DNA of 63,953 nucleotides, counting the filler, from Sphacelaria rigidula (lineage: Eukaryota), in NCBI GenBank assembly GCA_964200075.2. It is 11 parts of 11 records of this genome, joined end to end, with 100 filler letters (N's around TTAATTAATTAA, not from the genome) between each part and the next. Parts side by side here need not be neighbours in the genome. Positions count along the whole stretch, not along the records: positions 58,232 to 63,953 come from CAXNAA020024961.1; 10 more parts are not named here. One strand, written 5' to 3'. The notes beneath the pieces are model-generated. The model did not search any database. It saw nothing but the letters and a program-made list of their open reading frames with translations, and was not told the origin of the DNA. The position numbers and the translations under genes were made by a program. Positions 5,725 through 63,953 of the stretch are shown piece by piece. Each line of letters opens with the position of its first letter. Position 1 is the stretch's first letter.

Positions 5725-5824
5725 NNNNNNNNNNNNNNNNNNNNNNNNNNNNNNNNNNNNNNNNNNNNTTAATTAATTAANNNNNNNNNNNNNNNNNNNN
5801 NNNNNNNNNNNNNNNNNNNNNNNN
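5725..5824. other. Artificial scaffold linker (first of 10; others at 11549-11648, 17372-17471, 23195-23294, 29018-29117, 34841-34940, 40664-40763, 46487-46586, 52310-52409, 58132-58231)
   Basis: Identical 44N-TTAATTAATTAA-44N blocks with stops in all six frames; intervening segments are 5724, 5724, 5723 x7, 5722 x2 bp, i.e. length-sorted scaffolds. Confidence 0.98.
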
Positions 5825-7193: not shown

Positions 7194-7362
7194 TCAAGGT
7201 TCATATTCTTCATCTCCAGAAAGGCGAAGAACCATGACGGGGTGATCGGTATGGGTCACAGAAGATTGGTCGCAACTTCACGGTGAGACTTTGAGCGGCA
7301 AGAAGCTTCAAAGTAGAACAATGGTGCCGGTCACTCCCTCCTCATTCCCGCCCCCCCGGCAT

Positions 7363-7733
7363 TGCCCTGTGGCAAAGCAAAAGAGACCAGAACTCATATA
7401 GTGACAGAATGTGAACTATAATTTAACTATACAACGATGAACGGGACGTGCTAGAGGGAGAAATGCGGGACGTGAACGAAGCTGCCATGAAATCGTTTGA
7501 CGCATTGGATAGTAGCGAAAAAACGATGACTATACTAAAAGATGGATGGTGGCCACAGACGGCGAAACAGGACGGGGATGAAATATGAAAACGTTTTTGT
7601 GTAATGTATGGAAGAAGCGTAATGAGCACCTGAATGCTGGAGGTGCCTCTATTAGGAATAGGAACGGGTGCTCCGTCTCGAAAGGGATGTGTGGTGAATG
7701 ATCGAACGAATGAGGTCAGCAACAAATGAGTAC
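7363..7733 (+). mobile_element. 5'-truncated LINE (3' end of RTE/RTEX-type ORF2)
   Basis: Translates with a disruption as CPCGKAKETRTHIVTECEL..ERDVLEGEMRDV..GWWPQTAKQDGDEI..FLCNVWKKRNE, i.e. the CCHC zinc knuckle and C-terminus of LINE ORF2; ends ...CAACAAATGAGTAC then a C-run; C-run also at the 5' junction. Confidence 0.85.
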
Positions 7734-7791
7734 CCCCCCCCACCCCATCCCCCCGATCCACTCCCTGCATGCCGCTTGGATATGCAACCAG

Positions 7792-11395: not shown

Positions 11396-12282
11396 CCAGC
11401 CTCTACGGCCCAAGAGCAGCATTTATTTCTCCTCAGAACTGCCCCAAAACCCCCGAAAAAAATGAGAGAAAAAAAACGAAAAATTGAAGAAGCTGTTTAT
11501 TACGCTTCAAACAGCCAATCATCTATGTTGAGGATGGTGCTTTTGATTNNNNNNNNNNNNNNNNNNNNNNNNNNNNNNNNNNNNNNNNNNNNTTAATTAA
11601 TTAANNNNNNNNNNNNNNNNNNNNNNNNNNNNNNNNNNNNNNNNNNNNCTCCAACATCCTGGCGCTCATTACTTTCCTTCCGTAGCTCATTACGTTTCTT
11701 CCATACATTACACAAGACAAGGCGGAGAAGACCCGGGTTCGATACCCGCCAGACTAATCTAGTTCGGTTTTTTCCTCGGAAGTATTTGACTTCCGTCGTT
11801 GACGGCATGAGGGCGTACTTGAGGAGCAACGCAACAATATATTTAGCTGAGTACGTTAGGAGACAGTCGACCCGGCGCGGGAGTTATTATGGTCATGATC
11901 CAATCCGCGGTACCAAAATATAAGGCGTGTGCAATACCGGGAGGGAGATGGGTTACTGTAATCGATTCCTTGAAACCACGCACTCGTCGGGAGGACGAAG
12001 AGAAGAGAGAGGGGATGATGGAAGTCATGGCGCTGTACGGCTTGTGCGAAAAGACTGCTGGTTCTGGGTCACATGCTTTTGAGCTTTGCGTATTGTAGCA
12101 GTCAAGAACGAGATTATAGCTCTACTTCTTGACCATGACCCCAGCCCTGATCCCTGACCCCTGACCCTGACTTGGACCCGAAGGCGGAGCATTGACAGTT
12201 CCAACGGTTGCTCGAGATAATTGGCAAAGTTGTTCAGAGGAACAAAGACAGTGTTGCCACATCGCCTCCCTTCCCTACCCTC

Positions 12283-12383
12283 CGAGGTGGAGGTGCCCCT
12301 CTTAGGAGTAAGATGGGTTCTCCGTCTCGAAAGGGATGGGTGATGAATGGTAAGATGACAGAGGTAAGTAACGTATAAGGACG
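12283..12383 (+). mobile_element. LINE 3'-end fragment
   Basis: GGAGGTGCCCCTCTTAGGAGT..CCGTCTCGAAAGGGATG..; C-rich tracts on both sides. An internal minus-strand fragment of the same family lies at 11649-11718. Confidence 0.75.
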
Positions 12384-15603: not shown

Positions 15604-15845
15604 GACACTTTCTACGATAGCCCCCCCCCAAAACGAGCCAAAAGTGTCCCGAAAAAAAAGACTATAAAGCGCCTGATGTTTGGGTTCAGGCTGCGTTAAG
15701 CGCCTCATATTGGCAACATTGGCGAGAACAAACCCAAGCGTGGAAATTCCCAGCTGCTCGTTGTGCTCAGCTTTTCCAATTTCGATTTACGTGAATCTCC
15801 CAAAACCATGCACTTTTGGGGGGGGGGCTATCGTAGAAAGTGTCC
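15604..15845. mobile_element. MITE family A (TIR GACACTTTCTACGATAG-Cn)
   Basis: GACACTTTCTACGATAGCCCCCCCCC...GGGGGGGGGGGCTATCGTAGAAAGTGTC; other copies at ~21488-21735, ~28524-28884, ~46660-46870 and a terminus at ~47732. Confidence 0.9.
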
Positions 15846-16283: not shown

Positions 16284-16535
16284 GTCATGCTACGATAGGC
16301 GCGCGGGGGGGTATTTTGGGCCGTTGTCTTCCACGAAATTCTACGTGCAATCGTCGTCGATAGCAGCAACGGTTGTTTGACCGCGTTCGCTCCCGATTAA
16401 TAAACGCTCATATATACTGCTCGACACCCCTTTTACCCAAATACAAGTGCACCGCGAGTGTGTGACGTCGTCTGAGGCACCCAGGAGCCCGTTTTTTCGT
16501 GGAATCGAACCCCCCCCCCCCTGTCGTAGAATGTA
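16284..16535. mobile_element. MITE family H (TIR GTCATGCTACGATAG-Gn)
   Basis: Inverted termini; interrupts the repeat that is intact at 181-560; opposite-orientation copies at ~44967-45234, 23295-23420 and ~32420-32530. Confidence 0.75.
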
Positions 16536-20928: not shown

Positions 20929-20958
20929 CTGTTCCACATGGCGGGGGGAGGGAGGGGG

Positions 20959-20994
20959 TGTACTCATGATCATGCATGCCATAGTCATCAGACC
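20959..20994 (-). mobile_element. 36-bp LINE 3'-end insertion (second subfamily) with G-rich TSD
   Basis: TGTACTCATGATCATGCATGCCATAGTCATCAGACC flanked by GGCGGGGGGAGGGAGGGGG and GGCGGGGGAGGGTGGGGG; related tails at ~16574-16602 and ~43770-43810. Confidence 0.7.
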
Positions 20995-22903
20995 GGCGGG
21001 GGAGGGTGGGGGGGGGATTGACGGAATCGAGTATAAGCCGGAAGGCTACGGCAGATGGGCGAGGTACAGCCTCAGAACACTGGTTATGCGGTTCCAACGA
21101 CCATCAGACGGTGTGCCACGTTTTGAACTTACTCCGACGATGTCGCAGTGCAATGAGAATAACTTCATGGTCTTTATTCAGCGCGATTCGTGTTCTCGCT
21201 ACCGGATGGGGAAAAAGCACGAATGAGGAACAAGGGGTAAAATAGAACGACCTCCGACTCCTCAGCTTGAGTTCATCGGAGCGATACTAGATCCGCACCA
21301 CGGTCTGGCATCCCAACCGGACAGACCCAATATTTTCGCCGCAGTGTGTGTCCTGTCCAGACATGAGAAGCACCCCTCGAATTCTCAGAAATAACATCTG
21401 CTGCAATATGGGGCTATGCCCTTTCTAAACGGTCTTTGACAAGAAAGTAGTTCATTAGTGATCGGTGTCCGGCCAATCTTCTATGATGACACTTTCTACG
21501 ATACTTACCCCCCCCCCAAGAAAACAAATTAAGTGACCGGTTCTGGGGAGGCAAATTCTGCACGTAAATCGAAATGACAAAGGCCGAGCACGACGAGCAG
21601 CTGGGAATTCCCACGCTTCGGTTCGTTTTTGCCAATGCCGCTCATATGAGGCGCTCTATGTAGCCTCAAATCTAACATCAGGCGCTGTATGACCATTTTC
21701 TCCGGGACAGTTTTGGGCTGAATTGTTTTGGGGAAGGCCTTCGCAGGAAGATTCTCAGGCCGAAATGGAAGCAGAGGGCGCGATAGCGCGTTATCCAAGA
21801 CTCTTATTTCAGTTCCCCTTCCCCAACCTCGACCTCACGAGTTCGGAGCAGCGACCTCAGTCCGCTTCAGCGAAATCAAGAACCTGAGGTGGTTATACTT
21901 GGTAGACAAACTGCACTACTGTGTAGGATGGGATATACCCGGAAATGAGCATGCTGCTTACCTCTGCCTCTACAAGGACCGAGTAGAGCCATACCGACAT
22001 GCATCCCGAAATACATGTCGCCGACATTAGGGCAGGGCTGGTGATCACGGCTGCGGCGTGACCCCCTCCTTCGGGATGGAGCACACTACCTCCCAGCAAC
22101 GCGTTCAGCCGTGCGCCTGATATTGAATACCGCGACCGAGATATGTACACGAAGATGGTTGTGCTATTTTCCCGAATATCACGCGGTCACGTTCGATCTG
22201 CTGAAAGCCAGCAGTATTACACCCTCTCCAGTGTTGTATCCACACTGTGATGCTAGGCTACCACTTGCCCTAGAAACGTTTGCCATAGGTTGCTCCAACG
22301 AAACTACATGGTACGTCACTTGCACGTATTAGACACGCATCACTGAACACGGGCCGCCAGAGAGAGGCAAATGCTCAGTACACCCGGATTACCGGTGCTA
22401 GTGCAGACATGTATTCAGTACGTCCCGACTATCGGTGTTATTACGTTACCTCGTGATTCTGAAGAGCGCAGATCTACTGTTCAATGCACACCGGTTTCTG
22501 TGATTGTATGAGATCTCACATAGGCAAATGTACACGAATACCACCGTGCCCGAAAAGATTGGCGCGTAAAACCTCAGCCGCAGTCGCCTGCAACGGTAGT
22601 GTATCATGCCGTGCTCCCCCGCCACGCAGTCAGTTCTAGTTCCTCTGCAGCTCCAGAAGCGAGAACCTGCGTTTCTCCGAGGGGACAATAACCGTGAACG
22701 GCAGGTATAGAAACTTTGCCGTGGCGGCGTACGATGTAGTGCAGTACAGTGTGATGTCGATTTCAACACAAGATGGGGTTGTGGTGTAACATCAGATGGC
22801 CCACGATAGCCCACGATAGTTGTGGCGTGTACGTTTCCTTTCTCGTTCACAAAAAAGTCAATCAAAGGTCCGCAAGTATCCTCTTGAAATGTGCTTCATC
22901 GAC

Positions 22904-25970: not shown

Positions 25971-26583
25971 CTCCCAAAGCGAAGGTTTCTGCCTTGCTTA
26001 CCTCATCGATGACATGTATCTCCTGGCTACCGCCGGATCCTTAAGGGATGAGTAAAGGTGGTGCGACAATCTACCTGGAGCACGTCCGTTTGTGAAAAGC
26101 TACCTCAACAATATCCCGGCTCGAAGCAAACGTTTCGCGCAACATTGACACACTCCGAAGTTCAACGTGCTGGACAAAGAAAACACACGTCGGACAGCCT
26201 ATGAGCTACCTATTATAAGATAATTCATCGAAGAGAACGCTCAGATAATTAGTCCAAAAACACGAAACGCGTGGCAGTAAGGGTCCGAGGAGCCAAAGCG
26301 CTACAAGCGCTACCTTCGCGCTTCTCCGCATGGTCGGCGCCTAGCGCTGTAGAAGGCAAATATGGAAAAAAAAAAAAGGGGTGTGGTGGGGTGGGGGCGT
26401 ACTCATCTGTTGCTTGCCTTAGTCGCGGGGTGGGGGGTGGGGGGCAAATGAGCAAGCTCATGATCCGGATCACTGCACTAACAGTAACTCATAAGCTGTC
26501 CGGCGTGTAAAACAAGAACGTAAACAAACCCTCGTGGGACAGTGATGAATGAAATCTTGTGCACGCGCATCCTTTTTGCTCAC

Positions 26584-26866: not shown

Positions 26867-28523
26867 CAACTGGATGATCGAATGGCTGGTTTACTAAATA
26901 AACGACTGAATGGCGGGAATTCTAAAGATTTCAAATAAGACGCTGCGTGTACATAAATAGGTACATCACGGGGTAAGGACTGTGATGTGATTTACAGCAT
27001 CATCACGACACCGGCGACGACAGGCCAAAACCAAACTAAAAACGAAAACAATAACAAAAACAAAAATACTGGGAACCATTACTGTCTGTCTTTTGTTTAT
27101 TACAGGGAAATATGTATTCGATACCCAAATCGACCACCCCGATCGATACAGACAGTGTTGTTGTCTGAGACCGCAACAACAAGAGCGTGTGAGCGCTGGT
27201 TGTCCGTTGTACACTGCACACTGCACATACTGCTGCTGCAGAGTGGGCGGCCGTGTGTGTGTGTTGACATGAAACTCACTGAAAAAAAATGAGGTTGTGC
27301 TTTGTAGGGTATACTCGGAACTGGGGGGATTGGGCATCGGGCACTTTTTCTTTTTTTTTGGGGGGGGGCGTACTCAATATTTTTTTGGGGGGGGGGGGGG
27401 GTGATATCGCAGCGACCAATCAGCGGTCGTTTCTGGAAGAACGTACTTGAAAAAAGGGAAAGATCTCCTTCGATAAGAAGCAAGATTGGGACGAATCATC
27501 GCTGGTTCGAATGACAAAATCCACCATTGTTTAGGCCTGATTGTTAAAAAAAGAGAGAAAAAAAGGTTGACCGCTGGTCAAAAAGTCTCCGCGCAATTTC
27601 CCCACCATTCCACGTGCCTGGACTGCCCGTACCTGGCATGCAACGCTGACAACACAGCCCAAGGATTGATTCGTACGGTGCGAATCAAAAAAGTTAAAAT
27701 CAAGTGATTTTCCAGACGAATCATTAATTCGTCCGACCCTTGATAGAGAGGGTTCTAAATCACATCAAAATGCGTACTGAACATGCCGGCATAGTCCGGG
27801 AGGTTACAGAATGTTCGGCGAACCTTCTTCCAAATAATCCAGCATGGTTTGGAACGGTGTATACGGAGGAAAATACCTTTTATAGTACTTCGGTGAATAC
27901 CCGAATTCCAGCCGGTATACACCCGACAGATGATACAACCTCGTAAGAATCAAGTCGCAGTCAATTGTCGTTACACCATCGGACCGCGAATCCATCACCA
28001 ATCGATCCACTTGTCGCAAGCTAGATAGCCCAGCTGATTGCTACTGCTGTTCATTCGTAGTCGTGCTTTCCAAACAACTATCCAAGGGTCGGACGAACTA
28101 ATGATTCGTCTGCAAATTACTTGATTTTAGTGTAATCGATTCGTACCGTACGAATCAATCCTTGAGCCTTGTTTTCAGCGTTGCAACCCAGGTACGCGCA
28201 GCCCAAGCACGTGGAATGGAATGACGCCAAAACTGCGTGGAGAATTTTTTCGACCAGCGGTCGACCTTTTTTCTCTCCTTCGAGCAACCAGGCCTTAAAA
28301 ATCGTAGATTTGGTGCTTCGAACCGGCGATGATTTGTCCAAACCGTGCAACTATCTATCCTGGAGAAGAAGATGCGAGGTTCATCGTCCTGTACACTAAT
28401 TACGGGCGGAGTGGGGCGTGGTGTGGTTTAGTCTGATGTGGTCCTTCAAACACTCAGCTTTGTGCATGTACCGGTGCCGCGACAACACAAGAAAAAAATG
28501 CTGGGGCATGTCTGGCACAACTG

Positions 28524-28884
28524 ACACTTTCTACAACCCCCCCCCCCCTCCCGCCAAAAATAGCATGCTCCGTCTCGAAAAGGGATGCATGGTCAATGAT
28601 CAAACGACTAAGGCAAGCAACAATTGAGTACGCCCCTTCCCCCCAAAACCAGCTCAAGAGCGTCACGAAAAAAAATGTCAAACAGCGCCTCATGTTTGGG
28701 TCCAGGCTGCATGGAGCCCCTCATATGGGTGACATTGGCGAGTACGAACCCAAGCGTGGGAATTCCCAGCTGCTTGTTGTGCTCGGCTTTTCCCATTTCG
28801 ATTCATGTGAAGATTTTGCCTCCCCAAACCAGGCACTTTGTTTTTTCGGAGGGGGGGGGGGGGGGGGGCTATCGTGGAAAGTAT
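28524..28884. mobile_element. MITE family A carrying a LINE 3' fragment (~28565-28632) in its TIR C-run
   Basis: Compared with the intact copy at 15604-15845 it has an extra ~70 bp (CCGTCTCGAAAAGGGATGC...GAGTACG) flanked by a duplicated C-run + AAAA. Another LINE tail at 28943-29017 (minus). Confidence 0.85.
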
Positions 28885-31502: not shown

Positions 31503-32534
31503 TATCTTGATACACTAAAAATAATGGTCGTGAAGTGGAATTTATGCTCCATTCATGCTCCTATGTTCAAACAAATTTTGCTCGATTTATGCTCGCAAGG
31601 TGGAATTCATGATCGATCATGCTCGTAATATCCAACAAGGATGGCATTCTCGATCGGATACAGACCCACCGATCACTATATGTATGTTATGTATACAGTA
31701 CATATACGAACAGCTATGCTACGACCATGCATATGTGTTAAGCAAGGTTTGGATTCTTGGGAGTTTAAGCAAGGTTTGTGATTGAGGGCGTTAGAACAGG
31801 TATTTCTGCACCAGTTTTTTCATCGTGCTCCCATCGGTAGTACAAAAAAAAAAGTGGCATGACACAGGGGATGGTTAAGTTTCGTCCCCTCCTGTGGATT
31901 GTTTTTGTTCCAGACGGAACTTCCGAAGATCTGGTCAGTAAGGAAAACTAGGGTATTGTTTTTCTCCCGTGCGGAACGAGGGAAAGCTTTTTTTCACTTC
32001 TTTTTTGTGTGGAATCTTGGCTATGTTGAGCGTGCTATAGACCTGTACCTTGAGGAGAAAAAGACATATTCCCTTCTGAACGGGTCCAAAACTACAGGGT
32101 GCCTAAAAACGACTCCTTCGAAGCGAGAAAAAGAGCACGAAGGGAAGAAAAAGGGGAAAGAAATGAATTTTTCGAAGAAAAAAAGTGTTCGAGGTTAGGA
32201 TCGAACTCCCGGCGCAAACACCGATCGCCGACCTTTTTTTTTTGCGCAAGCCCAAACCTTGCTTATGTTTCCGGGCAAAGGGAGTATATATATTTACATA
32301 TGTACGAAGAGCCATGCGACGATGGGGGGGGGGGGGGGGGAAGTTTCAAAGAAAAAAGGGGACCAGAGATGGATGGAGGGACCACCACACTCGNNNNNNN
32401 NNNGGGGTGGCGGGGGGGGGGAAAAAAAATGTCGATTCCACGAAAAAATGTGCTCATAGATGCATCGAATGACCTACAACACTCGCGGTGCGCTTGTATT
32501 TGGGTAAAAACGGTGTAAAGCAGTATGTACAACT

Positions 32535-37835: not shown

Positions 37836-40263
37836 GTGCGTACCGTGGGCACAGGGCGGTCGATGCAATACACTTGTGAATAAACAGTCGTGCCGCAACA
37901 TCCACTCGGCAAATAGTTTTTCGAAATCTGTTGTGTGACGGGGACGGGGCTCGCATAAACGTGAAATTGATGCGTATTTTGTCGAGGTCCGCCGACTACA
38001 TGGAGGCTGCTCCTTCAACAGTACAGACAGTACAGTAAGCAGTACATCGCGGACTCTCGTGTCTCGAGACAACGGTGCTCGAAAAATGATGTTCCGTGTG
38101 CTATACAAAAACAGACGGGTTCACCTAGACCTTACTCATACAGGACAACCAACTACTACTACTGTAGTCCTGTGGTGTACAAAAGTGAAGACAGACAGGG
38201 CAAGTACAAAGTACGTTCGTGCCTTCCTCTTGCGCATCATGAAATCAACACATTTTTGAATATCAAGGATAGATGGACACACAACTGTTGTTGTGTATAC
38301 AAAACGACTATAATGGCACACGTGGTGAAACAGCGTCATGTTCAGTGACTTATTGGTGGGGGGGGGAGGCTCTTTCTGTGAATGATTCATATGCGTACTC
38401 GTACTGTACGCGTTTATCCTGATTTTCTTCACATCGCGTAGGTTTGCATGCGTGGGCGTCAAACCCTTAGACCGCGGTGCGGGTAGTCCATCTGGATCAC
38501 GGGTACTTTTTTCAAGTGAATCTTGATGCCGATTCGGCAGGTGACCTACCCTCGCGGTCAGAGGGTTTGATTTCTTCTGTTGGGCGCTTTGTTCATTAGG
38601 AGGACTACTGTTCTGTACTGTGCTGCCGTATGTGCCGTACGTGTGCAGGACTGCATTGAACAAATGCTCTCGTCCTCCATGTGCCCCTCCCTATTTGTAC
38701 TGTTGCGATATCATACACGTGTTCTATACTCAAATCAAGATAACACGCGTTACCCCAACCAGCGCCCAATAGAAATACTCAGTCCGAGTACTTATCACGT
38801 GTGACGTTCACATGACACCAAGGGCTGTTCTTGTTGTCGGTAAATACCGTCATGTCATTTTCGAAAGACAGACTGCCCCCGGACCTTTTCTCAGGGGATG
38901 TAAAGGCAAAACTCAGAGCGCATTATAAGAATACCGACAAGTGAAACTACAGAGAGAGGGCTGGCCTACAGTCGGCCCGTTGCGAAATTCGGGGCTGCCA
39001 CACTGGCCGGACCCTTTGTGCTACTCGCCTCATATTCATGAGCAGCAATCAATCGTTTCCCTTGGAGGAGGCGGCGGGTTTACTACAAACATGACGATTG
39101 TTGAGTCTCTCGCGAGTGGGCGTTGTTGCCCTTTCAATCGGACCCCGTCGCCTCAGCTTTACGGTCTAGTCTAGCTGGTAGCATGTGTCCCAAGCCACCG
39201 CCCGGTTATCTTCGAGCGGGAGGATCAAGCAGCGGCCCCAAGACATTATCGCGCGACAAGTGAAATGTAGCTCTGAGGCACTGCACTGTCAAGATACGCT
39301 GGGCGAGAACCATGTACCGCAGTTGTTGTTGTTGTTTGAGGAGGGAAGGGGGTGTTATTGCCGAAATCTTGAGTTTTGCAGCTGTTTTCATGTTCTATGT
39401 GTCCCTCTGCCTGGATATGCCACACCGTGTGGATCTGGTATTTCCATCGGAGGAGCAGCAAAGCCATGTCCCTCACGTTGGCATTATTTACATGGGCTCA
39501 AGCCGATTGCTGTTGCACTTGTAGCCCCCTGTCAACACTTTGACGCGCGACGCTACCGTCCGGAACAACATCGGTGGTTGCCATTTCAATCCGGGTATCT
39601 TGAACGGTTCAACCCTTGGACCTCGAGGGTAGTGTAGCTGGACCACGCATACCTTTTTCAAGTAAAGTTGATGCCGATTCGACAGATGACCTACTCTCGT
39701 CGTCGAAGGGTTAACTTTTTCAGTCGCGTCTCTCCGGTATGCCACCACCGGAACCAACGGCAACCTGAAACCGGTTGGGCCGAGCTAAGGGCTAGAACCA
39801 CAAACTAAGATGCGTTTTTGCTTCTGACGAGCACTCGTACAGCATCTGAAATCTACCATTGGCGACCGGAGGTCGTGAGGGACGAAGAAATCCTAACCCT
39901 CGGACGGCGAGAGGTATGTCATCTGTCCGTTGAATCGGCGTCGATTTCAATCGGAAAAACTGTGCATGATCCAGATGGACCACCCTCGCGGTCTAAGAGT
40001 TGACGCAGAGTCCACCCGGTGCGGTGGTGCTAAGAATCCAAATCGCAATACAGCGGACCGTGCCAAAATGTCAGTTATATTTCAAGGGAGAGAGATGGGT
40101 TGATCCTTGGAGACTCGTGACCCATGCCGATAAAGGCGAGGGGGTTGAACGTACGATGGACGAATCGAGCGGGCTGCGAGCGCGCAGATATCAATATCTT
40201 GGACGCCCGGAGGCCCGCCCCTGGATGGATTATACATGGACAGCCTCTGGGGGTGAGGGGGGG

Positions 40264-40477
40264 CGTACTCAATTGTTGCTTACCTTGGTCGTTCGGCCAA
40301 TGACCACCCATCCATTTCGAGACGGAGCACCGTTCCTACTCCTGATAGAGACACCTCATTCCGGCACTCATTACGTTTCTTCCATACATTACACAAGAAC
40401 CTTTCACATATCTTATCCCCGTCCTGTCTTCCCGTCTGTGGCGTGGCCACCATCTATCTCTTAGTATAGCCGTCGTT
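40264..40477 (-). mobile_element. 5'-truncated LINE with TSD
   Basis: Reverse complement of the 17472-17702 tail; flanked by GGGGTGAGGGGGGG and GGAGTGAGGGGGG. Confidence 0.85.
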
Positions 40478-40922
40478 TGGAGTGAGGGGGGTTGTTCGGA
40501 GTAGTTGTTCCTTGGGGAGAGTCCGACGTCCGACGCGTGCGTGGAAATAACATGGCCTTGCATTTACCAGCCGGTCGCCCCGGTGGCTCAGTTGGTAACC
40601 TCGTAACCTTCTGATGGTTGAGTTGGGGGGTTCCCGGAGCGATCTGGAACCTTTTCTCACACCNNNNNNNNNNNNNNNNNNNNNNNNNNNNNNNNNNNNN
40701 NNNNNNNTTAATTAATTAANNNNNNNNNNNNNNNNNNNNNNNNNNNNNNNNNNNNNNNNNNNNAATCAATACAACCGCGAGTGGTAACAGTGGGAAATAG
40801 TGTTGGAAAGGGGCTTTGTGAAGAGAAAGGGTGTGCGGGGGGGGGGGTTATCATTGTTCCGCGTGATATACTGGTGTATCGTACTCTCCGTAAACATACG
40901 GTATGGCACTGCGCGTGAATAC

Positions 40923-44600: not shown

Positions 44601-45830
44601 CTATTGTCATCATCCAAAAAAAGGGATAATATTAACAACAAAAATAATATAACAAGAGGAGTGAAAAAAAAAATGAACCCTTTTGGAACGCGCGAAAAAA
44701 ACAGTACAAACTCCTATATGCGACCTTTTCGTCTCCGGAGAAACGTCACTTCGAGTTGGGTACACGAATCTGTCACATTAGTAAGTATACTTGAACTTAG
44801 CATGGAGCTAGGTTTTAGTGGGCTGCATGATCAACAGGTGCAGAAAAGCAACCATAATATCTTGCCCAAGAAAATGTCAATTGTAAATCGTCACTTTTCC
44901 ATCAACGGTTCCAAAAGGCTTGACCTAATCGGGTGGGCAAGGTGTTCAGCACGCTACGCGGTGAGAGTCTTCATACGATAGGGGGGGGCTTCGATTTCAT
45001 GAAAAAATGGGCTCATAGGTGCGTCAAACTACCGAAGACAATAATCGCGGTGCGTTTATACTTGGGTATAAGTGGTATCAAGCAGTGTGAATGAACCTGA
45101 ACGAACGTTATTTATCGGGAGCAAGCGCGTTCGAACAACTGTTGCTGCTTTCAACGACAATTCTAGTATAAATTTCGTGGAAGAAAACGGCCCAAATACT
45201 CCCCCTCCCCTCCCCTCCCCTATCTTAGCATGGCTCGCGAACATCTGTTACCTACTTTAGGTAGGCTGTCTGTCGGGCAGTGACCGAATAATGGCGGTTG
45301 CCAAATTCTTGTTTTCTTGAAAAATAAATAAGAACCGTAGAAAGAGAGTTGAAAAGGCTGCTGTTTCCATCCGAATCTAGGAAGACAAATACCGTATACC
45401 GGATGTGTTCATCAAAAGGGAGGCGGGGGTTACAGCTGCACTTTTGATCCTATAGGAGTGTGGGTGACTCACAGCTGAAAGATTCAAATATCAGCTAGGG
45501 AGGTGGTCGTTAGGAGATGATGGCGAATGCCACGCAGACAATCTGAATAGTTGTACCACCCCTTGAACATGTCATCCGAAACGCTTGCGAGAGGACGCAA
45601 CATGCGTATAGTAGCATTTAGCGTTAACGCTTCGTTAATTGGCTGGAGAATGACCGCATATGCACCGGATTTAGCCACTTTGCACGCCCTGTACAATATG
45701 TGAGCAATAGTCTCAGACAAAATGATCAGGATTTTTATGTCTTGTATCGCAAGGAATAGCAGAGACGGTATTGGAAAGAGGAACCTACGTCTGTGACCAC
45801 GGGTTCGAGAGATCGAACTAATGTGCGGAA

Positions 45831-45915: not shown

Positions 45916-47789
45916 GATGCAAAAAAGAAACAATGTACTGCATGAGTGTAGCCTATTGTAACCATTTGCGAACCGACAGTAGTTACACAGAGCTACACTT
46001 TACGCAGTACAACATTCTCTATTGCAACTATTGACCACATGTATTGTCCAGGGTGTACAAATTTGACCCACTGCAGGTGGGCAAATGAACCTTTCACGGT
46101 TAGGACAAATCAACTCGTGAGTCAACTCAGAGTCATCATTTCGACGAATAAATCATACGGTCCGTACATAATTTGTAATTCACACAGCCAACCCTTCTTC
46201 ATGACTCAGGGCGTGAGTGGCTTGTACATGTACGCCATGTGTGACAAGTTCAACGTGAGCGCCCGTGTATGTTTCCCACCTTCGGATTAATGCGGGACCT
46301 ACATGAGTCATACAGGTTAATTAATCTAAAGTCATGGGCCCTGAGCCACACACACGTTTGTCCAACCTGTAATGCACGCAAGATGCCACACTGCACAATA
46401 TGTTTTATGTTATCCACCCTCGAGTGAATGTGGGACCAACACTCGGCAAAGAGTTGAATTCTGCCATTTCATGTTCATGGGGCCTGNNNNNNNNNNNNNN
46501 NNNNNNNNNNNNNNNNNNNNNNNNNNNNNNTTAATTAATTAANNNNNNNNNNNNNNNNNNNNNNNNNNNNNNNNNNNNNNNNNNNNAGTGTGGGGAAAGC
46601 ACTGTTTTAGGCTTGAGCCTCATCTCGAAGTTAAACCTCAATTCTCACAATTTGTTGTTAATGGCCGATTTGGGCAGGCAATACCTGCACATAAATAAAA
46701 ATAAAAAAGCCGAGCACGACGAGCAACTGGGAATTCCTCCGCGTGGGTTCGTTTTCTCCGATGTCGCCCATATGGGGCGATTCATGCAGCCTGGAATCAA
46801 ACATTAGGCGCTGTATGACCATTTCTTCGTGACAGTTGTGGGCTGGTTTCGGGGGGTGCTGTCGCAGAATTTTCAATGACTGCATGTAACCCTTTTGGAA
46901 TCGTTGATGGAAAACTGACGATTTACAATTGACGTTTTCTCGGGCAAGAAATGGTCGTTTTTCTACAGCCTTTGAGGAAATGATTCGCTCAAAGCGTGTT
47001 TTTCAGACCCATGCGAATGAATCGTGGAAAAAAAGAAGGTTCGCTATTTTGCGGTTATGACGAACTGTTCGACCCGCCAGTGTTCTCTAGCCCAGGCCAG
47101 AGAGCACGGAAGGCCTCCGTGAAGCAACATTCACACCGCACCTGCCTGCCCCCCCCTTGCAGTTGATGCTTTGTGCCGCATCATAACAAGCCTGTGCCTG
47201 AGTTGCAATGGCAAAGGCGACGCCGACGGCACATTTACCTCACTCATGCACCCGTCTACTGTCCGTATTCGGAGGCCGTCGCCGTCAGGCCCTATGGGGA
47301 TGCGTCCATATACTCCTCTGTACTGCGTGTGATCTTGATGATATGTTTAGCTTCTTTCAAGTGTAAACCCACGTCATGTACGCTACTGCACTCTATCGTG
47401 CGCGTTTATACGATACCATACTGCGGTTTGATCATTCCATGACGGCAACGCGGATGCCATGTACCCTGCCGTTATACACACCCCTGGCGCACCGTAGAAG
47501 GGGGGCGTCACTTTGGCGTATCCGATACAGGCTATCACTTCGTAGGCTGCGATCTTACGGCATTTCTCATCTTGCGCTTTGTGCTGTACGTTTCCACGAT
47601 GCCACCTCTATACTGCGTGTTGACTATGTCTGACCGTTACACAGCCGTACTTTATGCTGCGTGAGGTTCATGACTCCGGCTGGCGGCACCCCATTCGGAC
47701 CGTCTGTCCTCGTGAGCGGCGTCGGGGTTTCGACACTTTCGACGATAGCCCCCCCCCCCCCTCCCCTCCAAACGGTACGCACCCCCCAC

Positions 47790-49920
47790 CTCTACACTCC
47801 TGGGTGGCGTCGAGTGGCAACGGCGCTGTAAAACAAGCCATCAAAACCTAGACACATGTACAGACTGTTAGCGTACATATACCGGGGATCGCCACCAGAC
47901 AAAGAAAGTTCCGGACCGACAGACTCAACATTCAAAAACCTAAACAAGCCGATGGCTTCCCCCCGAAAACACACAAAAAAGATGTAGTAATGATATACCG
48001 AAGCTGGTATTCTCCCCCTAATTTTACTGTTCCCTTTTCCTTAGCCATTCTATTTTTCTTCCTTGCTAGTATTTTTCTTCTTTTCTTTCTTTACATGTCT
48101 CCCTTTTCCGCTTTTTTTTTTCCGTTTCCCATAACACAGTCCGGGCATAGACATGAAATAGAGAAGCTAACCTTCCCTTTTATTCAATTTACCGCGACAC
48201 GGCCCGGACATGGGCGTGAAATGAAGAAGCTACCCCCCCCTCTTTTATTTAAGTTACCATAACACAGCCCGGACATAGACATGAAATAGAGAAGGTAATC
48301 CTCCTTTTGACTTAACCTACCATAACACAGCCCGGACACAGACATGAAATAGAGAAGCTAACCCTCCTTTATATTTAACCTACCATCTTACAGCCCGAAC
48401 ATGCACATAAAATAGAGAAGTTCACCCTCCTTTATATTGACTTACGATATTACACTCCGGACATCGACGTGAAATAGATAAACTAATCTCCCTTGTTACT
48501 TAACCTAAAATAACACAACCCGGGCATAGACATGAAATCGAGAAGCTCAAACCCCTTTTTACTTAACCTACCATAAGACAGTCCGCACATCGACGTGAAA
48601 TAGATAAACTAACCCTCCTTTATATTTAAGCTACCATAACACAGCCCGGACATAGACATGAAATAGAGAAGCTAACCCTCCTTTTTGTTTAACCTACCAC
48701 ATTACAGCCCGAACATAGACATGAAATAGGGAAGCTAACCCTCCTTTTTACTTAGCCCACCATAACACAGCCCGGACATAGACATGAAATAGAGAAGTTT
48801 ACCCTCCTTTATATTGACTTACGATATCACAATCCGGACATCGACGTGAAATAGATAAACTAACCTCCCTTTTTACTTAACCTACGATAACACAGCCCGG
48901 ACATCGACATGAAATAGAGAAGCTAAAACCCCTTTTTACTTGACCTACCATAACACAGTCCGGACATCGACGTGACATAGATAAACTCACCTCCCTTTTT
49001 ACTTAACCTACGATAACACAACCTGGAAATAGACATGAAATAGAGAAGCTAACCCTCCTTTTTGTTTAACCTACCATATTGCAGCCCGAACATAGACATC
49101 AAATAGGGAAGCTAACCCTTATTTTATTTAATCTACTATAACATAGTCTGGACATCATGGAATAGAGAAGCTAATCTTCCTTTTCATATCACCTACTATA
49201 ACACAGCCCGGACATAGATATGAAAAAGAGAAGCTAACCCACCTTTTTATTTAACCTACTATAACACAGTCCGGAAATAGACGTAAAATTGCGAGAAAAA
49301 AATATCTACTTTCCCATATCAAGACGGGAAATGATCGAAATTCTTCTCTTCCCTACCATAACAAAGGTGAGACAGAATAAAACCAAAACCTAGACAAGTA
49401 ATTAACAGGATGAAGGTTGACGACCTTACATGCAAATCGAAAGTACAGAAGATATAACCAGTCAGGGTCACGGTAGGGTCATCACCCTCTCCATGTCAAA
49501 TTGCATAGAGGTTGGGGTCTCGTGGTGAGATACCCGTAAAACCTTACCGGTTTCCATTAGGCGGTGGAACTCAGGTCAGCCATTTTCAGAAATTTCCGAC
49601 TTTAGGTGCAAAAAGCGACTAATGAAGGAAAGGGGTGGGTAATGCATGACAAAAATGCCAATACCTACTGCACTCATGAAACAAACACCGTAAACATGAT
49701 CGATCACATGACCTACGAGAAGGGGTATGTAGACTTCTTGAAGGATAGAAGCTGGTACAAAGTGTGGGGGAATCGTTGGCCAAGCTTTCGGCAGCGAAGG
49801 TCTACTCGGAAGCATCAGTGGCGTAGCGACCCACGGTGAACCGTACATGGAATGGGAAGAGTGATGTACGGGACATCCCGATGTGAGTAAGGCCTTGTGT
49901 CATGCAAGCCGCTCTTGAAC
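47790..49920 (+). mobile_element. 5' portion of the RTE/RTEX-type LINE (leader, tandem array, start of ORF1 region)
   Basis: Colinear with the reverse complement of ~62125-63830 from GGCGTCGA.TG.CAACGGCGCTGT through TTCGGCAGCGAAGGTCT.CTCG.AAGCATCAGTGG.GTAGCGACCCA.GGTGAACCGTAC. Confidence 0.85.
48129..49290 (+). repeat. 63-bp tandem array, ~18.5 units
   Basis: Consensus CCATAACACAGCCCGGACATAGACATGAAATAGAGAAGCTAACCCTCCTTTTTATTTAACCTA; units start at ~48257, 48320, 48383, 48445, 48508, 48571, 48634, etc. Confidence 0.95.
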
Positions 49921-49930
49921 CTGACACGCA

Positions 49931-51133: not shown

Positions 51134-51673
51134 CTGCGCGGGACAGCGAATTCTTCCCCATTAACCACCACAAGACGGGAAATTCGGACAACGTGTACGA
51201 GCTGGGCCAGCAATCCACATACTGGAGAAAAGCTTCTATTGTAAAAAAATGTACCGCGTATTGTGTTGAATTCGCCGTCTGCTGCAACAGGCGCAGTAGT
51301 CGTTACTGTACACGGTATACTTTGTGACAGTGTATTCTTTCGTCCAGGGTGTGCCGCAACCAAGGCGCACATTTCGGTTCAACCAGTGTGCGGAGGTCAA
51401 TGTTTGCAGTAATGCCGGTTCTTGCGATTTGTATTTCTTTGAGCTCGTACTTTTCACTTTCGAGACACTTAACGCGATTTTGGCCGCGAAACAGAGACTA
51501 TCGCCATCTAACGTCTTGGACACTTTCTGATTCGCACGGCTCGGATATTTCGAGAACAGCCTCAGGATAAGAATCCAACTGACAAAAAAAAGCGATGTGT
51601 GCAGGAATTTTCAAAAAAGAATACTTGTAGACACAAGGGTCTGTCGAGCAAACAATTTCGGACATGGAGGCCT

Positions 51674-51706
<33 letters not shown>

Positions 51707-52899
51707 CGCCCGCCTGGCCCCGCTCCGCTCTCCCTTTTGTTTTTTTTTGTGTTTTCGTTACTATCTCTCACAATTATACTAANNNNNNNNNNACAAAGGG
51801 ACGGCGACACCAAAAATTTCGGCAAGGAGGCCCTCCCCCCCCCCCCCCCCCCCCCTCCCGGAGGGCAATTTTTCGAAAATTGTCGTGATTTTTTTCATTT
51901 TTCGTTGATATTTTTAAAAGAAATGGATCAACAAACACTGACAAAAACCGAAACGTCTGGTGAGCTTTGCGGGGTTTACATATTTGCCTCTGCTTCTAAT
52001 ATATTTATATGAAAATATAACATGTATAATATAAGGAACATATGTATACGGTATTTAGTATGTAGAGAGGTTAGATAGGTCGAAAGATGGAACCTTGCGA
52101 TTCTTAGTTTTTTGGTTGACGGTATTTGGGGCCTTGAGTCTCGCCCGTAGTCGGACTCCATGTTCATTTTCTACATGGCGTTGCGCGTCGAGCTGGAAAC
52201 CTGGATGCCACCCCCTGAGGTCCGAATGGCCACCTAACAGGGTTGCCAGAAAAATGAGAACGTATTTTGAAATGAGAATCAACCGCTCCCCGGGATTGTG
52301 TCCATTTTTNNNNNNNNNNNNNNNNNNNNNNNNNNNNNNNNNNNNNNNNNNNNTTAATTAATTAANNNNNNNNNNNNNNNNNNNNNNNNNNNNNNNNNNN
52401 NNNNNNNNNTCTTCGAGGGCAAAGCCGGTACCCCACCCCCCCCCAAAGAAAAACAGAAAAACAGCCGCTCCCCCCCCCCCCCCCCCCCCGTCAAAAACTC
52501 AGAAACTCAGAAACTCAACTTTTCGATCTTGGGGCCTCCGTGTCCCGAAATCTTTTCCCCGTAGCCCCTGATCGGATGTAGGTGGAGCATCATCGGCCAT
52601 ACTTTTAATTACCACGTATTCCGGAGTATACAACAGTGAACAGTGGGCAAAACACAAACAAGATTGATCGGGAGACCGAATAATAGTTGAGTGATGTAGG
52701 TTATACCCTCGGGTTCCCTGAAAATTAACCAAGCGACGACTCGAAGTGCCAGGTGGTCGTCGAATACTAAACGCGCCATCCGCGTTCGGAACCGATGGGC
52801 TACACATCTCACACCAGCGGTGTGTAGCTGACACCATGGAAGGCAAGGGGAGGTTCACCCCCGTCATTGACTCCCTTTGGCGGCGGCGCACGATCGGGC

Positions 52900-57685: not shown

Positions 57686-58419
57686 ACAGTCTGTCAAGAG
57701 CCGTTCCGGTTATGTAATACACCGCATGTGTCTAGAGCTAGAGCCAGGGGCTGTTGCCGTGGAGTGGTGTTGGTCTGCTCTCCATTATGCTCCGTTTGAA
57801 ACGGTATTATTTTCGCTGCATCCTTGGCCGACAAAGCACTTGGCGTTTGCTTGCTCATTGCCGTCTCTGCGTGTTTGTCATAAAGAGAGAGTTAGCTAAT
57901 GCAGTGGCTGAGATCTATCAGTATGAGTCCCGGGAGATACCATGGTGTCAGCCTCACCAAGCTCCCACGTGGGCAAACTCACACAGACCTAGCTATCCTC
58001 CCTCGACTTATCACAATATAGATTCATTCAAGTTCAGACTCTTGATAAGGAACTCACGTGTGTGCTTAGCATCATGTCTTATCTACAAGCAGCTCTCTTA
58101 CTCAGTACAGCCGCAGGGCAGCCATAGAAGCNNNNNNNNNNNNNNNNNNNNNNNNNNNNNNNNNNNNNNNNNNNNTTAATTAATTAANNNNNNNNNNNNN
58201 NNNNNNNNNNNNNNNNNNNNNNNNNNNNNNNAGAGTTGTACTCGAGATGACCAAGCCGCGACCGAAACGAGACGACCGCCCGCAAGCCTCTACTCTGGTT
58301 TGGGGGGGGGGGGGGGGCTTGTCCGATAGGATGATATACGTCTCCCGAAGGGGAATCGTGTTAGGATGGTTGGCGGCACAAGGGCCGAAGGAGGGTGGTC
58401 GGTCTTCGCAACACGGGGT

Positions 58420-61270
58420 GAACCACACTTTTAATTTTATCGCGGAGCCCATTGCGCCATGCAGATATGTTTTCATCCCTATTCCCTCTCTCAATCCTCC
58501 GTAATTCTTTAGTTGTTCGCCCTCACCTACTTTCCGTCTCAGTGCTTATTTTTCTCTTATTTCTATCATGTCTCTTGCTTCGTCTTGTACCCCGCGCCTT
58601 CACCTATGGACAGTATTTCCTCTTGGGGTCCTCCTATCTCCTTGCATACTTTCTCAACTTCTCTATCCCACCTTATTGCAGCCTGCCCTTTTATCATTTT
58701 CTTCAATACGGCCCTATCAACGATGGCCGGCAATCTCTTTCTTTGCATGTTCGTTATGCTATTTTTTAATTCGAATTTCTTGTCTCCGTTTGTTTCACGT
58801 CGGTGCAATCCCAACTCTGCTCTCAATGCTGTATTACTCGTCGTTTTTGACGTCGTCGTCGTTTTTGAGCATCCAAGTATTTTCTTAGCTGCTGCCAACC
58901 ATACTGTTTCCAGCTTCCTCATCAACTTCACGTACCCCTCCCATACTTCTGCTGCATATTCCACCTTTGGTACAATCACATTCATCAGAATACATCTCTT
59001 AATCCTAGTATCTAGATGAGGTTTTCGTGAGATCCCGTCCATCTTGCTCATCTGTACCTCATGCTTTCCTATTACTCCATATATAATGTGTGTGTGTGCA
59101 TCTCTACGCCAAGACATACTGCGCTACGATCCGCAGTTTCTCTTCTTTCCACTCCCATTCGAACGCTGCCAGGTTTTCTTTACCTTCGTTACATACAAGT
59201 ACCCCGCATTTGTCAACGTTCACTGTCACTCTCCATCTCCTAGTGTATTTTAGCGTCGTCTCTATGTATTTTTGCAATCCTTCTGGCGTTTCTGATATCC
59301 CCACGAAATCATCAGCGAACGATGCCGCATCTTCCCCCACTTTGACCCCTTGCTTTTCTGCTTCTATTGATATTATCAGTAACTTAATGAATAGTTTGAA
59401 CAAAGTGGGTGATAACGTACACCCTTGTGCAATTCCTTGTAAAACATCAAATTATTTCGGTATTTCCCCGTCTAGCATCATAGCACTTTCGCACATGCTG
59501 CCACCTTCACAACTCTTCTCTATAATTTCCTGCGTCAGCCTTGCCTCCTCTCTCGAAAAGGTTCATTACTACTCCTCCTCTCCACCTCTTGGGTGTGAAC
59601 TTGTTTTCCCATATCCAGTATTATAGCATAACCATCACGGTAACCATTCCCTCTCCCCCGTACTTGAGAGATTCATTCCTTATTTCGTCTACCCCTGCAG
59701 CCTTTCTGTTTTTGAGTTCAGCTGTGCACTCCTTTACTTCATCTCCGGTGAACTCTCTCTCTCTACGATTCTTCGGAGTCACGATCCTCCCGCTTCGATC
59801 TCTTTACATTTCCCTCTGGCTACGCATTGATTTATTTTTCGAATAACTCCGTGTCGAACCTCTTGTTAGCTTTTGGTGCTCCTAGCTTACGGCAGTGCTC
59901 TAGTAACACTTCTCTCTTCGCCTTCGAACTACTGACTATTTTACCGTTCTGTGCCCCTGGGGTGACTATCCCTTGTCTATATTTCCTGCCTGGCTTCTCA
60001 TCATTCCTTTATCCCTACCCGCATTTGCTTCATCCCGCCATGGAAATCTTCATTTGATTTCTTCACTACATCTTGCAATTTCCCTTCTCTTTCTTTTCCA
60101 CCCACTTTTTCACCCCCTTTCGAGTTTCAGCACACTCCTCCCATCCTACCGTAGTTATATTCGATATACAGCTTGCGTGTGCCCCTCTCCTTACTCGTAT
60201 AGCTTGTTTTACGTCCTCATCCCACCATTTTATTGCTCTGTTGCAAACGATCAGTTTCTTCTCTGTGACTTTACTAGCTGTGGTCTTGACCAATTGCTCC
60301 CATCCTTCTACAATCTTCGCTCCTGCCCGATCCCTTTCCATTTCGGTATCAACTTTACCTAGGAGTTCCAACAGCGCGGAACCTTTCACCGCATTATTTA
60401 CCATCATGCCTTAGAACGCCTGCTGTTTTCCTTGTGTTTTTAGTTTCTTTATTCTCCGTTTGTACATCTTGTCACCCCGCCTATTTATTTTAGCTCTCGC
60501 CTGTTGGCTTTCTTTCCATATTAGGCAATGGCCCGTAGTTCCCACGTCCTCAGCGAATGCACCTACCTCCATTTCTTTACTACTTCCATGCTCCACCACG
60601 TTATAGTCAAAAACGAAGCTTCCTGTTTTTTTCCTTTGCATTTTCTAGTCCACGTCCATTGCGCATCTGGCTGTTGTGCTCTATCCTTCAGCGTCTTCAT
60701 CTCGTTATTTTCCAGGAAGTTCAGCATCCCTACCCCACTCGGGTTCTTTTTGTCTTCCCCGTATCGACCAATGATATCATCTGGTTGACCTCCTTTTCCA
60801 ACCCTTGCATGAAAATCTCCCACTAACATTACTTCTCCTTGCCTTTTGTAGTTATGTGCATATCTTGCTATCTCTCCAGACCTCTGCATATCGTTTCCCG
60901 CACTTGTCGATTCTGGGGGCGTGTAGATGTTCCCTACAAAACCGTATTTCTTTCCTCGCTCTCCTGGTACCCTTATCCATATACTCTCGTCAAAATTTGT
61001 GTCTTCGATCACATCTATTGTGTCAGACAAAAGTTCCCTGACAACAAATCCTACTCCCCCGCTCCACTGCTCCTGGGGTTCTGCCCCTCCCGCTTTTCTC
61101 CCGTGCATACGCACTCTCTAACCTTGCATCCTAGTTCCATCCTCTCTTTCACCCACGACTCTTGGATTACCACTACATCTAGGTCACGTTTACTTACTTG
61201 TTCGGCTATTTATTCTCTTACGCTCGTCCGCAGCGAATCCACTTGAGTTCGACGATCCTATTCTTAGCTT
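58420..61270 (-). pseudogene. LINE ORF2 (APE endonuclease + reverse transcriptase), RTE/RTEX-type, disrupted
   Basis: APE motifs DVVVIQESW, VGFVV, NIYTPP, MLVGDFHARVG, WTW, TTGHCLIW; RT motifs KAAGVDEI, QGIAQGCTLSPTLF, FADDFVG, VNVDKCGV; downstream EYAAEVWEG, ALRAELG, GLREGIGMKTYLHG. Many stops and frameshifts; RT domains ~1-3 deleted near 59545; 3' end missing. Confidence 0.95.
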
Positions 61271-61289
61271 CCTTTTCGAATCATTAGCT

Positions 61290-62450
61290 CCTCTCTTTTT
61301 GTGTTTTGTTCTCTCTCCGTCGTTATCATTTATATTTTCCCTTGCTTGATTTTTCTCCCCGTTTCCGGTTGGTTTTTGTCTATTCGCTTCGGGCCGCTAT
61401 TTCCACTCCCTTCTCTCTTCCGGGAATTCACTTTTTCCTGCTTCTCCTTTCCTCCGTTTACCCGCGGACTACGTCGTCGGTTTGTTGTTTCATTGGCTAT
61501 GCACATTCTCCATCCTACCCTTCTAACCCATGCCGACATCTTACTTGCCTCCATTGTTTCCCCCTCCTTCCACGCGCTCTGTTTCAGCGTGATTCGAAAC
61601 TGTCCTCTTTCTAATGTTCCCAGTGCCAAACAGTGTAGCCCTACTTCATCGCATTTCCTTGCGAACTCTACTCTCGTCATATACTACGGACTCCGAATAC
61701 CAGCACTACTTGTGCTTGACCCGTCCACTCTTTACTTCTCCATCCGCCCTTCCTTATCGTCTCTCTCTCGATCTGCTTCGACACTATCTCTCTCGATCTG
61801 TTCCGGCAGTATCTCCAGCTTTTTTGTTTTCAGTTTTGAAGTGGGGTGGGTCGATGTTCTGGGATATCCCAATCCTAGTACTTGTTGGAGGTATGGTGTC
61901 TTTCAGTTTTTTTGCCGGCTCACCGACACTCAATGATGCCTCTATCACGGGCTCGTAGCCTGAAGCCAAGTTCATCACCCTTGACACATGTACCCCACGT
62001 TTGTGCCAGGCGATCTTCATGGTAAACCATCCACATGTCCCCCGATCGTATCTTCTATCTTCTTGCCCCACTGCTGTACTGGCTACTTTCTTCCAGGGAG
62101 GTAGGTCATTTTCACCGTGCAAAGTTTAAGGACGGCTAGCATAACACAAGGTCGTACTCACACATCGGGATGTTCCGTACATCATCACTTCCTCCCACTC
62201 CGCGTACGGTTCACCATGGGTCGCTACTCCACTGATGCTTTCGAGCAGACCTTCGCTGCCGAAAACTTGGCCAGCGATTGAACTAGCTTCTATCCTTCGA
62301 GACCTCAAGTTCCACTCACCGCTTGGTGATCCTTCTCGTTGGCCATGTGGTCGGTCATCGGTAAGGTATTTGTTTCATAAGTGCATTAGGTATTGGCGTT
62401 TATGTCATGCACTATCTACTTCTTCCCTTCATCAAACGCCTGTGCACCTA
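61290..62450 (-). pseudogene. LINE ORF1 region, disrupted
   Basis: Consecutive minus-strand frames (62126-62308, 61784-62122, 61330-61680) directly upstream of ORF2, with a K/R-rich C-terminus; boundaries approximate. Confidence 0.6.
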
Positions 62451-62734
62451 CTGCCGGGAATTTCAGGAAAATGTCTCACCAGAATTTCATCGCCGATTGG
62501 AATCGGTGAAGTTTTTCACATATCTCACCACGAGATTGCACCTTCATGGGGATTTTAACATGTCGGGGTGACCCTATCCTATCTGTACTTGTGATTATGT
62601 ATTTTGACAACCTTCACGCTATATTACTTACATGTCTACGCTTTGGTTGTTTTGTGTCTTACGTTGTTATGATATGGGGGTATCTCGATTGTTTTCAGTC
62701 TTGATAAGGGGAAATAGAAATTCTATTTCTCGCT

Positions 62735-63345
62735 ATTTCCGTGTGCGTATCCGGTCTGTGTTCGGCTTAATGCAAAGAAAAAGATGGCTGTAGCTTCGTT
62801 GTTCCATTCTATGTTCGGGCTGTGCTCTGGTAGGTTGAAGAGAAAGGATAATTTGCGTCGTCATCTCCTGTCTATGTCCTGGCTGTGTTTTGATAGCGCG
62901 AAGAAAAAAGTGGTAAGCTGCGTTATTCATGTCCATGTCCAGGCGTTGGTATCGGTTCATGAAAAAGTGGTTAGCTTCTTCATTTCATGTCTGTGTCCGG
63001 GCTGTGCTCTGGTAGGTTGAAAAAAAAGAGCGATTCTCTTCGGCATTCATGTCCATGTCCGGGCTGTGTTCTGGTAGGTTAGAGACCAAAGGCTGGTTAG
63101 CTTAGGTATTTCATGTCTATTTCCGGGCTGTGTTCTGGTAGATCAATTGTTTCAAAATGAAGTGATCAGCTGTGTTATTTCATGTCTGTGCCCAGGCTGT
63201 GATCTGGTAGGTTCAAGAAAAAAATGGTTAGCTTTGTCATTTCTTGTTTGTGTTCGAGCTGTGTTTCGGCAGGTTGAAGAGAAAGAATGGTTGGCTTCGT
63301 TATTTCATGTCTATATCCGGGCCGTGTTCTGGTAGATTCAAGAAA
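62735..63345 (-). repeat. ~63-bp tandem array, ~10 units, in the LINE 5' region
   Basis: ATTTCATGTCTATGTCCGGGCTGTGTTCTGGTAGGTTGAAGA...GGTTAGCTTCGTT is the reverse complement of the 48129-49290 monomer; two more decayed units at ~63540-63650. Confidence 0.9.
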
Positions 63346-63850
63346 AAAGCAACAACAACAACAACAACAACATGAACGAAGAATAATGGAGGAAATAGAA
63401 GAAGAAACAGTAAACGACAAGAGAAAAGGGAAAAAGGAAAACTTAGAAATATTGAAAATGTTGAAAATATCGAAAAAAAAAGTAAAAATAGAAAATCAAA
63501 TAGAAGAGGGAAGCAGAAAACCGTATAAAAAAGCTGTTGGCTGCGTTATGTCATATCTGTTGATGGACTGCATTCTGCCCGTGTAAGGGAAGTAATTGGG
63601 TAGGTTCGCTATCTCATGTCTATATCCAGTTTGTGTTTTACTGTCGGGAATCAAATTTGGATATTTGGGCTGTTGCATGTCTAGTGTATCTGTTCATTCG
63701 ATTAAATCTTCTTTTTCAGCGGTAGTCTCTGGTGTATGTGTAGTGACAGTCTATACGCTCATCTCTAGGTTCTGGTGGCCTTTTTAACAGCGCCGTTGTC
63801 ATTCGACGCCAACTCAACAGTCCAAGAGGTTTGTGCGTGGGGGGGGGGGG

Positions 63851-63893
63851 CGTACTCATTTGTTGCTTGCCTTAGTCGTTTGACCATTGACCA
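63851..63893 (-). mobile_element. 43-bp LINE 3'-end insertion with exact TSD
   Basis: TGTGCGT(G)12 at 63832-63850, then the insert, then TGTGCGT(G)17 from 63894. Confidence 0.9.
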
Positions 63894-63953
63894 TGTGCGT
63901 GGGGGGGGGGGGGGGGGAAAAAAGGGGAGGGAAAAGTGGAGGGAAAAAGGGAG

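Follow-up and report, generated by a model that had tools for sequence, protein, structure and literature searches.

Mammalian L1 elements nick their target at T-rich sites and carry a poly(A) tail. Waldo, Mino, Kibi and TRAS/SART, all LINEs of the R1 group, are specific for microsatellites or telomeres, and their targets are di- to hexanucleotide repeats. The elements closest to the family described here come from the Ectocarpus transposon catalogue (Genome Biol 2025, PMC12477816), whose (C)n LINEs are classed as RTE-X. Supplementary file 1 of that catalogue lists RTEX-1_Ec32 (5867 bp) with 'single EN-RT ORF; (C)n 3'' and a 'C-rich' TSD, RTEX-2_Ec32 with '(C)n termini/TSD', and the non-autonomous RTEX-N1 and RTEX-N2 with C-rich TSDs. 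In the portion of the main text covered, 'C-rich' and 'homopolymer' have 0 occurrences each. Two further reports (PMC9942856 and bioRxiv 10.1101/2024.02.27.582245) mention RTE-X, and the parts covered hold nothing on C-runs. A literature search, covering its sources in part, returned no paper analysing poly-C targeting by a LINE. In the sources covered, the phenomenon is on record as an annotation note without analysis. A preliminary description of the Sphacelaria rigidula DNA analysed here had taken the behavior to be undescribed. That stands for its mechanism, of which the literature searched contains no analysis, but not for the C habit itself, which is already annotated for Ectocarpus RTE-X (PMC12477816).

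The Sphacelaria LINE resembles RTEX-1_Ec32, RTEX-2_Ec32, RTEX-N1 and RTEX-N2, as listed, in its (C)n 3' end and C-rich TSD, and the first two also in their single EN-RT ORF. The Ectocarpus elements belong to another family and host: the best Ectocarpus protein has 55% amino acid identity, the families being compared by annotation, and the listed lengths are 5.5-5.9 kb versus ~6.2 kb estimated for the Sphacelaria element. RTE-clade LINEs of the same catalogue, such as RTE-1_Ec32 with its (CAA)n 3' end, share a single EN-RT ORF, a very short 3' UTR and a simple-repeat 3' end, but differ in that their tail is (CAA)n, the entries covered list no C-rich TSD, and they are shorter, at 4.0-4.6 kb (PMC12477816).

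The window, as the whole stretch of 63,953 bases is called here, consists of 11 contigs of 5,722-5,724 bp each (~5.72 kb), joined by stop-codon linkers of the form N44-TTAATTAATTAA-N44 at 5725-5824 and then every ~5823 bases. As these contigs are unplaced and were binned by size, features on opposite sides of a linker have no real linkage, and the copy counts given below refer to independent small contigs and not to one locus. These contigs are small, unplaced and repeat-rich, and may not represent the genome.

A repeat that ends in ...GAGTACG and runs into a C-rich tract, as the preliminary description had reported, is present in at least nine window copies. The site that it singled out reads, on the + strand, TGTGCGT-G12 (63832-63850), then 63851-63893, then TGTGCGT-G17 (63894-63917), and the middle segment is the reverse complement of the final 43 nt of the LINE, ...TGGTCAATGG...GAGTACG. 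The site thus reads, on the element (-) strand, as a 5'-truncated 43-bp copy (63851..63893) between two copies of a target-site duplication, C17 + ACGCACA on the 5' side (63894..63917) and C12 + ACGCACA on the 3' side (63832..63850); the ACGCACA of the latter doubles as the first 7 nt of a long copy downstream. The 16-nt terminus GCAACAAATGAGTACG has 7 matches in the window at no more than 3 mismatches; shuffled versions average 0.44 matches, and 0/100 shuffles reached 7. Two more divergent copies named in the preliminary description, at 12383 and 27369, are also present. Metagenome contigs searched with the 20-nt terminus provided three outside loci (L001-L003), none of which includes a 5' junction.

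The remaining short copies vary in length and preservation. On the + strand, a 374-bp 5'-truncated copy (7361..7734) has C-rich flanks on both sides and an imperfect duplication, a divergent copy with 75-78% identity (12288..12383) ends in ...AAGGACG followed by a C-rich tract, a copy cut 5' by the contig start (17472..17700) is followed by CGCCCCCCCTCCCCCCC, and a 67-bp copy (28566..28632) sits in the C-run of another repeat, family B, with flanks C12TCCCGCC-A5 (5') and C4TTC6-A4 (3'). On the - strand, a 27-bp copy (26398..26424) lies between two similar interrupted C-runs; a copy of only 8-11 bp (27369-27376/9, within 27351..27401) is flanked on the element strand by C15-A7 (5') and C9-A9 (3'); a copy cut by the contig end (28944..29017) is followed by C8; and a 215-bp copy (40264-40478, within 40253..40491) has a duplication of C6-7 + TCAC, with C6 on the 5' side and C7 on the 3' side. 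An internal LINE fragment cut by the contig start lies at 11649..11717 (-). Beside it, at 11720-11760 (-), is a stretch similar to a tRNA T-arm and acceptor end in reverse complement. ARAGORN detected no tRNA anywhere in the window, and an Rfam scan of it was also empty, leaving no indication of a tRNA-headed SINE.

The 3' junctions are uniform. At least 8 C occur in the first 10 nt after the end in 12/12 cases (9 in the window plus L001-L003), against 0.55% of window 10-mers. As had been proposed, there is no poly(A) tail: 0/12 ends run into A, and the A-run at copy 27369 sits after the C-run and is also duplicated on the 5' side. The sense-strand end is followed by C and never by G in all 12 ends, which points to the G-rich strand as the one that is nicked and serves as primer. 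The end of L004, a relative with 68% identity, is also followed by a C-rich stretch, CCCGCCCC.

The view that these ends belong to a LINE is borne out by locus L002, in which positions 119-4399 (-) form a single uninterrupted 1426-aa ORF with endonuclease and reverse transcriptase domains (Pfam Exo_endo_phos, residues 235-461, E 6.7e-13; RVT_1, residues 807-1056, E 1.1e-30). L001 holds a 1253-aa version of this ORF cut by the contig end. The L002 ORF ends in ...AAA TGA GTACG and the C-run follows directly; with its stop codon placed 6 nt short of the element end, the LINE has virtually no 3' UTR. Judged by these sequence features, the family is an APE-type non-LTR retrotransposon, because endonuclease and reverse transcriptase share one ORF whose stop lies just before the element end. 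The copies have the common 3' terminus, variable 5' truncation (8 to 374 bp) and flanking duplications by which LINEs are recognized. No separate ORF1 was found: L002 has only one sense-strand ORF of at least 100 aa, with 711 nt upstream that lack one, the 5'-most ~1.2 kb of the element being known from degenerate window copies only.

Two long copies supply that 5' part. One, long and degenerate, occupies 58232..63838 (-), with its 5' end abutting C12 and its 3' end beyond the contig end; the other, represented by its 5' part, occupies 47777..49928 (+) and starts 15 nt downstream of a C13 run (47749-47761) belonging to a family-B repeat. Both thus begin beside C-runs, as previously noted, the contig-11 copy directly after its run, and both open with ACGCAC.... 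Each carries a 63-bp tandem array in the 5' region, upstream of the ORF, with 18.5 units in one (48129-49289, +) and 8.6 in the other (62808-63348, -). L002 is 78-100% identical to the short window copies, and the flagged 43-bp copy together with 10 C of the adjoining run (63841-63893) matches it at 53/53 positions. It is 74-76% identical to the long contig-11 copy over 62648-58426 (-) and also aligns to 49374-49928 in contig 9. Because L002 aligns to both, the two long copies belong to one family with the short 3' ends; their tie to the ...GAGTACG end rests on this outside locus, as they stop short of the 3' end in their contigs. Overlaps of the copies give an estimated full length of ~6.2 kb. 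A Pfam scan of 178 window ORFs of at least 90 aa, and of 47 shorter ones on the sense strand of the two long copies, gave one match to LINE domains, an RVT_1 remnant in the contig-11 copy (59107-59451, -; E 6.1e-12), and no APE remnant. The sole window ORF of more than 250 aa, a 640-aa ORF at 19126-21045 (-), is serine-rich and of low complexity, has no Pfam match and may not be a real gene.

The nearest named homologues of the L002 ORF are unnamed Ectocarpus sp. proteins, to which stretches of it are 55%, 48% and 66% identical. The homology points to a host that is probably a brown alga or closely related to one, and a run containing the sequence carries the label algae metagenome. This homology and the shared features, used here in place of a tree, make membership of the RTE-X group most likely. 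A scan of genome contigs found one degenerate relative, L004 (1501-2541, 68% nucleotide identity over ~1 kb), and a scan of viral contigs found no relative. The L004 contig, 29 kb long, lies in a genome bin labelled Verrucomicrobiales bacterium and is probably eukaryotic DNA binned by mistake. The final 67 nt of the element (L002:114-180, -; window 28566-28632) have a predicted fold in which GUGCUC pairs with the terminal GAGUAC (MFE -19.8 kcal/mol, z = -2.17, one compensatory change in 7 sequences). Many genomic copies seem to break off just where this stem starts on its 5' side (loose ends at 28579 and 29006). The predicted fold might serve as a recognition unit for the reverse transcriptase, on weak support from a stretch that is also coding.

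The 5' junctions distinguish a target from a tail. Both junctions are visible in six copies (63851, 27369, 40264, 28632, 26398 and 7734), and all six have a run of at least 6 C within 30 nt upstream, a feature of 1.9% of window 30-mers. The duplicated unit is clearly a C-run plus unique flank in four of them (63851, 40264, 27369 and 28632), and approximate and C-rich only in the other two (7734 and 26398). The duplications listed in the preliminary description were recovered: TGTGCGT-Gn at 63832 and 63894, GTGAG-Gn at 40253/40482, Tn-Gn at 27351/27380 and Cn-AAAA at 28537/28633. On the element strand the order of parts is [C-run][unique][element][C-run][unique]. Moreover, family-B paralogues at 15621 and 46658 read ...CGATAG-C9/10-AAAAC... 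uninterrupted where copy 28632 sits. By sequence comparison these are paralogous empty sites for that copy, with the C-run already in place. The same order on both sides and the uninterrupted paralogous run together indicate that the homopolymer is itself the target, included in the target-site duplication, and more than a mere tail, as originally claimed.

It could instead be supposed that the C-run is a 3' tail borne by the element, a poly(C) analogue of poly(A), either encoded or added, with ordinary targets and upstream runs that reflect coincidence or a loose regional bias. C does follow GAGTACG directly in every copy, the Ectocarpus table as listed uses the wording '(C)n 3'' (PMC12477816), and the runs around copy 28632 are interrupted differently on the 5' and 3' sides, so part of its 3' run could be RNA-derived. 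This reading is nevertheless unlikely, given the C-run at every visible 5' junction, the arrangement there of C-run first and unique duplicated sequence next, which repeats that of the 3' side, and the paralogous site that has the run without interruption. Nor do the 3' runs show a tail-like excess: in the cleaner copies, the 5' and 3' runs measure 17 vs 12, 15 vs 9 and 6 vs 7, the 5' run being about equal or longer, a comparison weakened by the unreliability of homopolymer lengths in short-read contigs. These lengths are what a cut within the run would leave if no tail were added. Quite unlikely as well is endonuclease-independent insertion, in which the LINE would use existing nicks or breaks at fragile G:C homopolymers (G4/i-motif, replication slippage). 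C/G runs are indeed very frequent in the window, and extremely short copies of 8-43 bp look abortive. Against this stand the staggered duplications of ~11-19 nt, which continue for a few nt beyond the run, the pattern that two enzyme cuts would leave, the strict strand bias of all 12 ends, and the intact APE domain of L002.

Reverse transcriptases add untemplated nucleotides, as is generally known, and untemplated G addition to the cDNA end could have made the upstream C-run at insertion; two of the LINE 5' junctions have three extra nt (TAG, TCC). We find this scarcely credible: untemplated addition at the 5' junction is excluded as the source of the run because nucleotides so added would adjoin the element, and it is unique duplicated sequence (ACGCACA, TCAC or an A-run) that separates the element from the upstream C-run. 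The paralogous site, too, has the run although nothing has inserted there. An artefact of assembly or sequencing, or recombination between homopolymer tracts that mimics duplications, would be in keeping with short unplaced contigs and error-prone homopolymers. It is very improbable, as the same terminus with a C-run recurs in three metagenome contigs and in the relative L004, and contigs from a run of a second study cover the region.

Read-level evidence comes from Logan contigs of four runs (X1-X4) from two studies, aligned to window contig 5; X2-X4 may be the assembly's own data. These contigs stop at C/G tracts; among the pieces listed none bridges an insertion, and none shows an orthologous empty allele; the joints listed have short sides (20-36 nt) and lie between repeat copies. 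Loose ends beyond the 3' terminus (place 28636) have a C-run consensus of 17-19, with 71 contigs each in X1 and X4, and loose ends beyond the frequent 5' truncation point (place 29006) have a long G-run on the + strand, with 92-116 contigs per run in all four. With a consensus agreement of only 0.42-0.52, these C/G-runs hint at the same junctions genome-wide.

Taken together, the data make it likely that an APE-type LINE, probably of the RTE-X group, uses target-primed reverse transcription to insert itself into G:C homopolymer tracts. The first nick would fall on the G-rich strand, inside the run or at its edge, and the 3' end of the nicked G-strand would prime cDNA synthesis at the 3' end of the RNA. 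A second cut on the C-rich strand, a few nt beyond the run, would duplicate the C-run and 4-9 nt of unique flank, so that the duplicated sequence starts with the run and spans roughly 11-19 nt. Frequent abortion of reverse transcription would leave copies of 8 to 374 bp. Donor transcripts may read through into their own downstream C-run, and the G-run primer could then pair with the RNA; as each donor copy has a C-run after it, read-through transcripts would end in pairable C residues. Each insertion would create a new target.

This proposed mechanism parallels mammalian L1 by analogy, in that a homopolymer of the nicked strand would be complementary to a homopolymer at the RNA 3' end, the duplication would start with it, and tail and target would merge. 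Unlike L1, the Sphacelaria LINE uses G:C rather than A:T, involves no polyadenylation, has one ORF instead of two and belongs to a different clade. The R1-group elements appear similar in function only, with a simple-repeat target and the same repeat at the 3' end; they would be of another clade, whereas the Sphacelaria LINE has a mononucleotide-run target and dispersed copies.

The window is rich in C/G runs. It has 43 C/G runs of at least 8, where a hand estimate from base composition predicts about one, and 17 C/G runs of at least 12 vs 3 A/T runs of that length, at a G+C content of 48%. By hand tally, nine of the 43 lie at junctions of the LINE family and ~11 more beside other repeats. Among these is family B, a ~240-bp repeat whose inverted ends, GACACTTTCTACGATAG ... 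CTATCGTAGAAAGTGTC, each have a C-run or G-run just inside them (copies at 15600-15844, 21488-21758, 28520-28870, 46658-46867 and 47730-47761). It looks MITE-like, and two LINE insertions, copy 28632 and the contig-9 long copy, sit in or just after its C-run. At least three further repeat families end directly beside long C-runs (6563-6649, 6716-6804; 51640-51705, 51800-51855; 16480-16521, 32412-32450, 44981-45010). One ends in ...CCCAAGTACGA-C19/C21 and has AGTACG in common with the LINE terminus, a second ends in ...GGAGGCCYT-C21/C31 and a third in ...GGAATCGAA-C8/C12. By analogy with Ectocarpus RTEX-N1 and RTEX-N2, these families may be non-autonomous partners.

A LINE for which a G:C homopolymer serves as both tail and target is rarely discussed and would be a natural counterpart to the A:T logic of L1. 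With this family one can ask cleanly whether target choice is set by the endonuclease or by pairing of the primer with RNA. For annotation, its signature is ...GAGTACG followed by a C-run. Poly-C/G tracts can form G4/i-motif structures, are prone to slippage and break assemblies, and the family explains the shortness of the window contigs and their lack of placement. If each insertion copies its run, such elements could drive the formation of many long poly-C/G tracts in brown-algal genomes. It is possible, and put forward tentatively, that the LINE machinery is truly G-strand-specific at G:C homopolymers and that the family and its partners multiply poly-C/G tracts in brown-algal genomes in a self-reinforcing manner, which would explain the excess of C/G runs.
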